Part shown: piece after piece, positions 26,240 to 28,449 of the stretch
Position numbering within the stretch: position 1 is the first letter of the stretch
How the letters are laid out: the number at the start of each line of letters is the position of its first letter
Assembly (NCBI GenBank): GCA_043740915.1
Contig: JAYUBJ010000549.1
Location: 1-33,626 of the forward strand
DNA: 33,626 bases
Origin: Verrucomicrobiota bacterium
GTDB lineage: Bacteria; Verrucomicrobiota; Verrucomicrobiia; Limisphaerales; JAYTXL01
Reading direction: 5' to 3'
The notes under the pieces: model-generated
Seen by the model: the letters and a program-made list of their open reading frames with translations, nothing else
The model's database searches: none
What the model was told of the DNA's origin: nothing
Translations under genes and position numbers: made by a program

Positions 26240-26605
26240 ATGAATCTTCCATCCGAATCCCTCCTCCTGCGCATCTTCATCGGCGAGTCTGACCGCCACG
26301 ACGGGCATCCGCTTTACGAAGCCATCGTGCTCAAGGCCCGCGAGAGCGGCCTAGCTGGCGCAACCATGCTCCGCAGTTCCATGGGTTTCGGTGCGGCAAG
26401 CCGTTTGCATACGGCTAAGATCCTCCGGCTCTCCGATGACCTTCCCATCATCATTGAAATCGTGGACGAGGAGTCGAAGATCAATGCGTTCCTGCCTGTC
26501 CTCGATGTCATGATGGGCGGCGGTCTCGTGACGCTCGAAAAAGTCCGGGTAATTCACTACCGGCATGAAAACAGCGCGCTCAAGCCAAGGGATTCAGAGT
26601 CGTGA
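26240..26605 (+). CDS. DUF190 (COG1993, PII-like) protein commonly linked to crcB
   Basis: LLRIFIGESDRHDGHPLYEAIVLKARESGLAGATMLRSSMGFG...LPIIIEIVDEESKINAFLPVL. The start is 1 nt after the crcB stop. Confidence 0.85.
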   Translation: MNLPSESLLLRIFIGESDRHDGHPLYEAIVLKARESGLAGATMLRSSMGFGAASRLHTAKILRLSDDLPIIIEIVDEESKINAFLPVLDVMMGGGLVTLEKVRVIHYRHENSALKPRDSES

Positions 26606-28449
26606 AGTCGCTCCTGAATTTTCGCGAGCATGTTGCCAGTTTTCGGCAACTCTTCATTTGGACGCTGCTCGTCGTGCCCGTGGGGATTTTCTCCGGCTCG
26701 GCCAGTGCGTTCTTCCTCTGGTCGCTCGACCGCGTGACCGGACTGCAATCGACCTACGGCTGGCTGCTCTTCCTCCTACCCCTCGCCGGCGTCGTTGTTG
26801 GCTGGACTTATCACCACGTCGGGAAATCGGCTGAAGGTGGCAACAACCTGATCCTCGATCAAATCCACGAGCCCGGCGGCGGTGTGCCGACCCGCATGGC
26901 TCCGTTGATTTTGGTCAGCACGCTTGTCACACACCTTTTTGGCGGGTCGGCCGGGCGCGAAGGGACCGCTGTGCAGATGGGGGGCAGCCTCGCAAGCGCC
27001 TACGGGCGGATTTGCAAATTTGGCGAGGATAACATGCGCGTGCTCCTCATGGCGGGCGTTGCGGCGGGCTTCGGGTCGGTGTTTGGCACGCCGCTCACCG
27101 GCGCGATCTTTGCGATGGAGGTTCTCGTGATCGGCCGGGTGCAATACGACGCGCTCATTCCCGTGCTGGTAGCGAGCGTGGTTGGAGATCTGACCTGCTC
27201 CGCTTGGGGCATCCACCATTCCCTGTACCACATCGGCATTGTCGATGGGGCCAGTCAGCGTGCGGGTTTCGACGGCATGTTGATGGCAAAGGTGGTGCTG
27301 GCGGCAATTGCGTTTGGCCTGACCAGCCAGCTTTTCGCCGAGCTCGCCCACGGTTTGGAGCATGGCTTCAAGAAGATCGCTCCTTCCGCTCCCTTGCGCG
27401 CCGCTTTGGGTGGGCTGTTGGTCATCGGCCTCGTTTATGTTGTCGGCACCCGCGACTACCTCGGGTTAGGGGTACGGTCGTCCGACCCCGATGTTGTCAC
27501 GTTGTTGTCGGCGTTCGCCCCGGGTGGAGCGCACGCTTGGAGCTGGTGGTGGAAATTGCTCTTCACTGCGGTCACGCTTTCCGCCGGATTCAAGGGAGGC
27601 GAAGTCACGCCACTTTTCTATATTGGCGCGGCACTTGGCAATACCCTCGCCGTGCTGCTTGGCGCCCCGGTGGACCTCTTCGCCGGTCTCGGCTTCCTCG
27701 CTGTATTTGCCGGAGCCACCAACACACCGCTGGCTTGCACGGTCATGGGCATTGAGCTGTTTGGCTCGCACTACACGGTGTATTTCGCGGTCGCGTGTTT
27801 TGTTGCTTACTTTTTCAGCGGCCATTCCGGCATCTACATGGCGCAACGCCTGGGGGTTTCAAAAAACAGACGCAACCACCTGCCGCCCGATCTCTCCCTG
27901 CGCGAAGTGCGCGCTATGCGCGCACAAACCAATGGGTATGCACTCACCGAATTCGTCGAACGACTTCCGTTTTTCTCCGACGCTTCTTCAAACCATGAAA
28001 CTATGAAAGACCATCATATCCACGCCCGAGAAATGGGCAAAATCCGTATCTATCTCACCCCCCGTGACCGCATTCCGGCCAAGGGTCTTTGGGACCGGCT
28101 AAATGCCAAACCCATCTATCGAGAAATCATCAAGGCGGCGAAGAAGGACGGCCTCAACAATGCCTCCGCGTTCATGACGCATTTCGGCTTCACCAACGGC
28201 GGCAAGATTCAAGCCGAGGGTGCGGAAATGCCCAACCCGAACCTCACCATGTGCGTCGAACTGATCGACCACAAGGACCAGTTGGAGGCGTTTTGCCGAC
28301 GGCATGGTGCGTTGCTCAAAGGGAAAACCATCGTCTACAAGCATGTCGAGCACTGGGATATCCGGGGTGGTGAACTGGTGGAAAAAGATGCCTCGCCCGA
28401 CGAAGTGATCGACGGACACAACGCAACCAAACTTCCGGCCAAAACATGA
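26602..28449 (+). CDS. CLC-F-type fluoride/proton antiporter fused to a C-terminal DUF190-like domain
   Basis: CLC fold in which GGNNLI replaces GSGIP, GREGT replaces GREGP and GGEVTPLFYIGA replaces GxFAP. These substitutions are recalled as characteristic of the fluoride-specific CLC clade. Residues 478-587 (KIRIYLTPRDR...KPIYREIIKAAKKDGLNNASAFMTHFGFT...CVELIDHKDQLEAF) parallel the free-standing DUF190 gene. GTGA overlap with the upstream stop. Confidence 0.88.
   Translation: MKSLLNFREHVASFRQLFIWTLLVVPVGIFSGSASAFFLWSLDRVTGLQSTYGWLLFLLPLAGVVVGWTYHHVGKSAEGGNNLILDQIHEPGGGVPTRMAPLILVSTLVTHLFGGSAGREGTAVQMGGSLASAYGRICKFGEDNMRVLLMAGVAAGFGSVFGTPLTGAIFAMEVLVIGRVQYDALIPVLVASVVGDLTCSAWGIHHSLYHIGIVDGASQRAGFDGMLMAKVVLAAIAFGLTSQLFAELAHGLEHGFKKIAPSAPLRAALGGLLVIGLVYVVGTRDYLGLGVRSSDPDVVTLLSAFAPGGAHAWSWWWKLLFTAVTLSAGFKGGEVTPLFYIGAALGNTLAVLLGAPVDLFAGLGFLAVFAGATNTPLACTVMGIELFGSHYTVYFAVACFVAYFFSGHSGIYMAQRLGVSKNRRNHLPPDLSLREVRAMRAQTNGYALTEFVERLPFFSDASSNHETMKDHHIHAREMGKIRIYLTPRDRIPAKGLWDRLNAKPIYREIIKAAKKDGLNNASAFMTHFGFTNGGKIQAEGAEMPNPNLTMCVELIDHKDQLEAFCRRHGALLKGKTIVYKHVEHWDIRGGELVEKDASPDEVIDGHNATKLPAKT

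Follow-up and report, generated by a model that had tools for sequence, protein, structure and literature searches.

The window analysed here is a 33,626-nt stretch of a Verrucomicrobiota bacterium (contig JAYUBJ010000549.1, assembly GCA_043740915.1), read on the forward strand. Behind a fluoride riboswitch it encodes two copies of the protein family DUF190, one as a free-standing gene directly after crcB, the gene of a Fluc fluoride channel subunit, and the other as the C-terminus of a predicted fluoride/proton antiporter of the CLC-F class. Profile searches and structure models confirmed that the C-terminal region of the CLC-F protein is a divergent DUF190 domain. The two copies belong to different subtypes, each of which follows its own exporter class, either fused to it or encoded separately. 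By analogy with GlnK and SbtB, we propose for DUF190 the role of a cytoplasmic module of PII-like fold, accessory or regulatory, which would dock on its own exporter, Fluc or CLC-F, and modulate it, a reading to which we assign a probability of roughly 55%.

In the original prediction, residues 478–587 of the CLC protein had been aligned block by block with the free-standing DUF190, and a profile search of the C-terminal region had been put forward as a check. The region matched Pfam PF02641 at residues 498–583, with 37 bits against a gathering cut-off of 23.4 (E 4.3e-9). For the free-standing protein, the match reached 132.6 bits with the same cut-off (6.3e-39) and covered the whole profile (2–97); in a sequence search, this copy also matched PDB entries 2dcl (PH1503, E 1.2e-25) and 1o51 (TM0021, E 3e-23). 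Compared directly by BLASTP, the free and fused copies share 22% identity over 88 residues (E 1e-9). Profile–profile comparison with hhalign, built from 12 free-type and 24 fused-type sequences, gave a probability of 97.5% and an E of 8e-12 over 90 columns. It recovered every block of the earlier alignment, namely (free-type/fused-type) LLRIFI/KIRIYL, PLYEAIVLKARESGLAGAT/PIYREIIKAAKKDGLNNAS, GFG/GFT and IIEIVDEESKINAF/CVELIDHKDQLEAF, and it placed an insertion of 9 residues behind strand 1 of the fused type. The fused domain, residues 478–587, lies at nt 28033–28362 on the + strand, a conversion that was checked and is correct, and it is supported by PF02641, hhalign and Foldseek.

Two AlphaFold2 models were obtained, one of the whole protein (pLDDT 77.9) and one of residues 425–615 (core pLDDT 86–96). 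In both, a linker helix at residues 433–454 is followed by a β-α-β-β-α-β domain of PII-like fold. When the 425–615 model was searched against the PDB with Foldseek, the solved DUF190 proteins were found first, which bears out the predicted structural likeness: 2dcl with an E of 1.3e-6 (TM-score normalised to target 0.78) and 1o51 with an E of 4.6e-5 (TM-score normalised to target 0.79). The next matches were CPII, GlnK and SbtB, including the complexes AmtB–GlnK (2ns1) and SbtA–SbtB (7egk). PH1503 and TM0021 (DUF190/UPF0166/COG1993) are structural-genomics proteins without an assigned function. The free copy of the window matches them at orthologue level. They also rank first in fold for the fused copy, which forms a subtype of its own, marked by the insertion and a distinct signature. 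In Thermococcus and Pyrococcus abyssi, proteins closely related to PH1503 are likewise encoded 3' of crcB.

Between strands 2 and 3 of the fused domain, residues 527–547 (28180..28242, + strand) form a low-confidence loop with pLDDT below 50, whose anchor residues H527, G529, G534 and E542 are conserved. From the model and the fold matches to 2ns1 and 7egk, this loop appears to sit at the position of the PII T-loop. The canonical P-II family (PF00543) gave no match to either DUF190 copy of the window at E ≤ 1, and archaeal DUF190 relatives carry just faint or weak precomputed P-II matches. Since neither copy matches Pfam P-II, DUF190 is PII-like in fold and not a member of the PII family. Among 24 homologues at 37–82% identity, 18 positions of the fused domain are invariant and 14 nearly so, and the invariant positions over this range of identity argue for purifying selection. 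The signature of the fused type comprises GKIRIYL, AAK, THYGFSNGG, CVELID, FCxxHG and YKHVEHW.

The fusion is widespread. Of the 120 closest homologues, about 100 have both Pfam domains; they belong to Opitutales, Chthoniobacterales and Rhizobiales, and some are encoded on Agrobacterium plasmids. The architecture is already catalogued, as 'DUF190 domain-containing protein' at NCBI and 'ClcA/PII-like signaling protein' at JGI, and it is not a discovery of this work. Its surroundings vary. In Termitidicoccus mucosus (L011), the order of the window is kept (crcB, DUF190, CLC::DUF190, small ORF), with a frameshifted CLC and an enolase gene after these; taken with the best matches, this shared order assigns the window to Opitutaceae. 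Locus L001 has crcB, DUF190, a Na+/H+ exchanger, Usp, two small ORFs, a second riboswitch and then CLC::DUF190, and locus L006 has a riboswitch, CLC::DUF190, crcB, DUF190 and EamA. A riboswitch stands directly 5' of the fused CLC gene in four loci (L001, L003, L005 and L006).

The two proteins also occur as separate, adjacent genes. On an IncFII plasmid of Klebsiella pneumoniae (L096), a riboswitch is followed by a CLC-F gene (457 aa) that overlaps a separate DUF190 gene (129 aa) by 4 nt; on the opposite strand, another riboswitch precedes ppaC, usp, eno, gpmA and crcB. On a plasmid of Sphingomonas parapaucimobilis, CLC-F (452 aa) and DUF190 (122 aa) are separated by a 26-nt gap, and in S. paeninsulae they are fused. 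The stand-alone Klebsiella DUF190 matched the fused-type profile with a probability of 97.3% (E 2e-11), free of gaps through the insertion, against 26.6% (E 7e-4) for the crcB-type profile, and the split Sphingomonas DUF190 bears the full fused-type signature. Because the split CLC-side DUF190 matches the fused-type and not the crcB-type profile, there are two exporter-specific subtypes of DUF190, each following its own exporter class, fused or separate. The free DUF190 of the window is of the crcB-associated subtype. The CLC-type DUF190 is attached to an N-T-type CLC-F (see below), either on the cytoplasmic C-terminus or as the next gene.

Concerning plasmids, tblastn found CLC-F-like genes in 183 plasmid records, 77 of which contain a single match, made up of no more than two joined pieces, that spans 80% or more of the query; at least 77 PLSDB plasmid records carry CLC-F together with DUF190. 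The Klebsiella plasmid (NZ_CP147606.1, 57001–70685) is a mobilizable clinical plasmid with PAP2, CLC-F and DUF190 in one arm of its fluoride island, and its set of ppaC, usp, eno, gpmA and crcB matches the FRM operon of Enterobacter cloacae (PMC5533749). After the plasmid-borne CLC::DUF190 of Agrobacterium, there is a short CrcB-like ORF, uncalled at 7832–8098 in L003/L004 and called with 89 aa at 3781–4050 in L005, which may be a decaying crcB.

The pairing of DUF190 with crcB was studied by scanning a single representative genome of each GTDB species, the query being just DUF190 (12-sequence alignment). At least 595 confirmed matches were returned, and the best 80, at 64–83% identity, were kept as loci. 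They come from at least 10 phyla and include members of Verrucomicrobiota, Acidobacteriota, Planctomycetota, Alphaproteobacteria, Thermodesulfobacteriota, Hydrogenedentota, WOR-3 and Ignavibacteria. In 76 of these 80 closest loci, crcB lies immediately upstream of DUF190 on the same strand, usually with a gap of a few to about 20 nt, and in the Bradyrhizobium group two crcB genes precede DUF190. By our own rough estimate, chance adjacency would account for about 0.03 loci in 80. With a covariance model built from six riboswitches, the aptamer was detected at 46 of the 80 loci, where it nearly always stood right ahead of crcB. The arrangement extends to Archaea: Thermococcus kodakarensis (L094, 1599–3381) has a riboswitch, a 288-aa prenyltransferase-like gene, crcB and DUF190, and in Pyrococcus abyssi crcB is followed by DUF190. 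The original prediction had read the fusion as Rosetta-stone evidence for a partnership of DUF190 with fluoride exporters. This argument is strengthened by the recurrence of the fusion in about 100 of 120 homologues, by the split CLC-F pairs and by the crcB pairing in 76 of 80 loci and in Archaea.

An exhaustive phmmer search gave 4436 DUF190 clusters at 50% identity, with many of the best matches being tandem duplications or triplications. A protein with two DUF190 units (L092, 4001–4801) and one with three (L093, 4001–5083) each lie directly after a crcB–crcB pair, and the three-unit protein fits a PII-like pseudo-trimer in one chain. No CrcB–DUF190 fusion was seen among the long DUF190 matches inspected, which were tandem forms of two or three units or had odd partners (Clp_N, isochorismatase), possibly from run-on gene calls. 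In addition, a Na+/H+ exchanger gene follows DUF190 in six of the 80 loci, and also in L001 (3118–5188), which echoes flH and flJ of Streptomyces; DUF190 may also pair with a Na+/H+ antiporter.

The transporter core of the window CLC was assigned from Voltage_CLC at residues 63–406 (Pfam, 1.1e-68) and from its sole PDB sequence matches at E ≤ 1e-3, the CLC-F entries 6d0j, 6d0k and 6d0n (E 6e-58, residues 6–419). The predicted CLC-F F−/H+ antiporter transmembrane domain thus spans residues 1–419 (26602..27858, + strand), and the alignment with 6d0j over residues 6–419 agrees with the initial description of a 615-aa CLC whose channel-like region ends near residue 415. The motifs GGNNLI, GREGT and GGEVTPLF are conserved across 57 aligned fusion homologues, with N82, E120, T122 and E334 invariant in all 57 and N81 present in at least 90%. 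According to Brammer et al. (PMC4113899), CLC-F proteins keep the Glu-ex, replace the central Ser by Asn or Met, and have Thr or Val after GREG; GGNNLI and GREGT of the window CLC follow this pattern. Since N81 aligns with a Met of 6d0j and T122 with its Val, the sequence places the window CLC in the N-T subclade as defined in that paper, and it is predicted to be a fluoride/proton antiporter.

The likeness to the CLC-F of Enterococcus casseliflavus (6d0j) consists of an end-to-end transmembrane alignment, the Glu-ex (GREG) and the GGEVTPLF glutamate, and control of the gene by a riboswitch is shared with CLC-F as a class. However, 6d0j belongs to the M-V subclade and has 421 aa without any extension, whereas the N-T-type CLC of the window continues for another 196 cytoplasmic residues, with DUF190 at the end. 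This extension begins with a linker, residues 420–477 (27859..28032, + strand), with a conserved LPPDxSLRE motif and the predicted helix 433–454 followed by a variable stretch of low confidence. LPPDxSLRE was considered as a DUF190-specific docking element and rejected, since unfused and split CLC-Fs have it as well, so that it belongs to the CLC part. In canonical CLCs the C-terminus carries CBS domains, and the likeness is that of a cytoplasmic regulatory module of ligand-binding type on the C-terminus of the CLC core. The folds are unrelated: instead of a CBS pair, the window CLC has a single PII-like domain, and no CBS domain was detected in it by Pfam.

The original prediction had described one riboswitch ahead of both crcB and CLC-F with a DUF190 gene between them, and all of these elements were found at the coordinates it gave. 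The window has one fluoride riboswitch, with its aptamer at 25736–25819 (+ strand; Rfam RF01734), which passes marginally with 34.9 bits against a gathering score of 34. Despite this score, the core is invariant in an alignment with five relatives that score 38–48 bits. The aptamer ends 20 nt before the start codon of crcB, with AGGA at about 25830. A terminator scan of the window gave sites no more numerous than in shuffled sequence and none evident after the riboswitch, so riboswitch control is probably translational. The genes then follow closely on the + strand. The 132-aa crcB (25840–26238), whose product matches Pfam CRCB (7.5e-26) and passes the NCBIfam CrcB equivalog NF010802 (206 bits against a cut-off of 140), is separated at its stop codon by 1 nt from the free DUF190 gene (121 aa, 26240–26605). 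The CLC-F gene (615 aa, 26602–28449) has a GTG start in a GTGA overlap with the DUF190 stop codon. An ATGA overlap joins the CLC stop codon to a small ORF of 89 aa (28446–28715), a predicted membrane protein, and a GTGA overlap joins this to an ORF of 535 aa (28712–30319) resembling nucleotide pyrophosphatases/phosphodiesterases (PF01663, 3.2e-32). The riboswitch and four ORFs, possibly with the fifth, read as a single translationally coupled operon in the order crcB, DUF190, CLC-F::DUF190, small membrane protein and, possibly, phosphodiesterase.

From the domain identity, the gene order and the subtype specificity, we infer that DUF190 would bind its exporter physically. Each subtype would be a cytoplasmic subunit or domain docked on the cytoplasmic face of its own exporter, acting probably through the conserved loop at the T-loop position, by analogy with GlnK–AmtB and SbtB–SbtA. 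It might be responsive to a small ligand, for instance an adenine nucleotide; like the binding, the ligand and the direction of regulation are inferred. GlnK–AmtB and SbtB–SbtA share with DUF190 the β-α-β-β-α-β fold and a gene immediately adjacent to that of the transporter; a flexible loop also connects strands 2 and 3, and the transported substrate is small and inorganic. DUF190 differs from them in lacking Pfam P-II membership, in having dimeric partners (Fluc, CLC) rather than trimeric ones, and in being covalently fused to the transporter in many genomes.

Several points weigh against the proposed docking module. DUF190 is not required for transport and is dispensable for the transporter core, since the crystallised CLC-F of 421 aa lacks the domain and so do close relatives. 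Reconstituted Fluc channels likewise work alone. Those relatives are Opitutaceae CLC-F orthologues or paralogues (L009 and L010) with 75–79% transmembrane identity and neither the domain nor a DUF190 neighbour; at this identity, their lack of the domain indicates that it was recently gained or lost in Opitutaceae CLC-Fs. The unfused CLC-F of L010 still has a riboswitch, and that of L009 has none. The stoichiometry is also mismatched, PII-like proteins being trimeric (three chains in 2dcl) and both CLC and Fluc dimeric, and nucleotide binding cannot be assumed because neither copy matches Pfam P-II. The 80 loci of the scan are the closest relatives and do not represent the 4436 DUF190 clusters at random, and four of these loci lack crcB and have DUF190 with a Na+/H+ exchanger and Usp, or with enolase. 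Three of these four are still in fluoride-regulon company: in L085 (4857–7020) a riboswitch directly precedes DUF190, the Na+/H+ exchanger and Usp, L045 has the same three genes, and L087 has DUF190 and enolase. In Pelobacter, DUF190 genes adjoin other, unnamed membrane proteins (PMC3543383).

The crcB-less loci also suit a rather unlikely alternative, in which DUF190 would be a soluble fluoride-stress factor that buffers fluoride or metal-fluoride, or protects or regulates fluoride-sensitive enzymes, and does not act on the exporters. Co-transcription would then reflect a shared regulon, and the fusion would merely secure co-expression. Besides DUF190 genes under a riboswitch without crcB, beside Na+/H+ exchanger and Usp (L085, also L045) or enolase (L087), this explanation can draw on flJ of the Streptomyces fluorometabolite cluster, which encodes a DUF190 protein (PMC9173684), and on the genes 3' of crcB–DUF190, which are the usual variable fluoride-regulon set. 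It does not fit easily with two distinct subtypes that each track one exporter class, fused or split, nor with the 76 of 80 loci in which crcB directly precedes DUF190, usually at a distance of a few to some 20 nt, and a covalent membrane tether would confine a soluble buffer or enzyme regulator to the membrane. Co-assembly would be served by the translational coupling and the fixed gene order, and the tandem proteins of two or three units adjoin heterodimeric crcB pairs. Together with the missing P-II nucleotide-binding signature, these observations speak for DUF190 as a biogenesis or stability factor that might help to fold, orient or oligomerise the dual-topology Fluc dimer and to stabilise the CLC-F dimer without ligand-dependent gating. 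This is nevertheless an unlikely explanation, as the nearest functional analogues by fold are ligand-binding regulators, the conserved residues cluster around the flexible T-loop-like segment, and many Flucs and CLC-Fs assemble without DUF190.

Given the 22% identity between the two copies, the replacement of the family motifs GExD, AGAT and SxDLP in the fused type, the close relatives without the domain and the frameshifted Termitidicoccus orthologue, the C-terminal region could also be taken for a functionless remnant, whether an appendage that is neutral or in decay, or an artefact of annotation or assembly, for example two-gene read-through. This is very improbable: the same architecture recurs in about 100 of 120 homologues from several orders, with 18 invariant and 14 near-invariant positions at 37–82% identity, a confidently predicted fold (core pLDDT 86–96) and an intact split form with the same signature. 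The conservation largely refutes a functionless appendage, and the recurrence in about 100 of 120 homologues rules out an assembly or gene-calling artefact behind the fusion. A bolder version of the docking module, which we hold to be doubtful, would make DUF190 a new branch of PII-type signalling that gates both fluoride exporter classes at the protein level. DUF190 would sense fluoride, or an energy or pH state that makes export futile, and would plug Fluc or CLC-F through the T-loop-like segment. In operons like that of the window, a CLC-F dimer might use its two fused domains to recruit a single free DUF190 subunit and so complete a PII-like trimer, and such a mixed trimer would physically couple the regulation of both exporters.

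Regarding the operon tail, the 89-aa ORF has a counterpart after CLC::DUF190 in Termitidicoccus (L011, 6287–6511; 49% identity, E 2e-14 by tblastn), and tblastn found it again in the riboswitch-controlled fluoride operons of L001, where it lies 5' of the fused CLC, and of the short contig L002. It matched no Pfam family. The 89-aa membrane protein is probably an operon member and is a candidate for a further component of Opitutales fluoride operons. The phosphodiesterase-like ORF is possibly the last gene of the operon, its membership being uncertain because it is not kept in related fluoride loci. Downstream of this PF01663 (Phosphodiest/alkaline-phosphatase-like) protein, a PAP2/vanadium-chloroperoxidase-N-like protein is encoded at 30536–31831 (+ strand), and in the fluoride island of Klebsiella, too, a PAP2 phosphatase gene (L096, 5081–5659) adjoins the riboswitch and CLC-F. 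The phosphodiesterase-like and PAP2-like proteins could be fluoride-relevant phosphatases. Directly 5' of the fluoride operon, the window (18611–25633, + strand) encodes an outer-membrane factor (OEP), a 385-aa ORF, an RND pump and an MFS transporter. The 385-aa ORF has no assignment and occupies the position expected for a membrane-fusion protein, between OEP and the RND pump. The pump is of AcrB type (21345–24437), and the start of the MFS transporter gene (24434–25633) overlaps its stop codon. A long antisense ORF at 21399–24506 is most likely a by-product of the high G+C content.

To our knowledge, fluoride exporters are regarded as stand-alone and controlled just at the RNA level by the riboswitch. 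No paper tying DUF190 or 'PII-like' to Fluc or CLC-F was found in the searchable literature apart from flJ being named as a DUF190 protein and a passing speculation, in the Pelobacter genome paper (PMC3543383), on transport modulation in the manner of GlnK, and an earlier mention elsewhere is possible. DUF190 is absent from a review of fluoride resistance (PMC11139923), and the CLC and DUF190 genes were not studied in the paper on the E. cloacae operon (PMC5533749).

The window adds one more case to an architecture already on record, and if fluoride exporters do have a PII-like accessory, this would be a variant of the GlnK–AmtB/SbtB–SbtA theme. If true, DUF190 would be the first protein-level control proposed for fluoride exporters, from Thermococcus to Klebsiella plasmids, and a function would be given to a structural-genomics orphan of about 4400 clusters at 50% identity, with two structures solved in 2003 and 2006. 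Fluoride tolerance engineering and organofluorine biotechnology are the fields to which this is relevant. The GlnK–AmtB/SbtB–SbtA paradigm would be extended to a toxic anion and, should DUF190 indeed gate the exporters, the view of Fluc channels as unregulated, always-open pores would be overturned.

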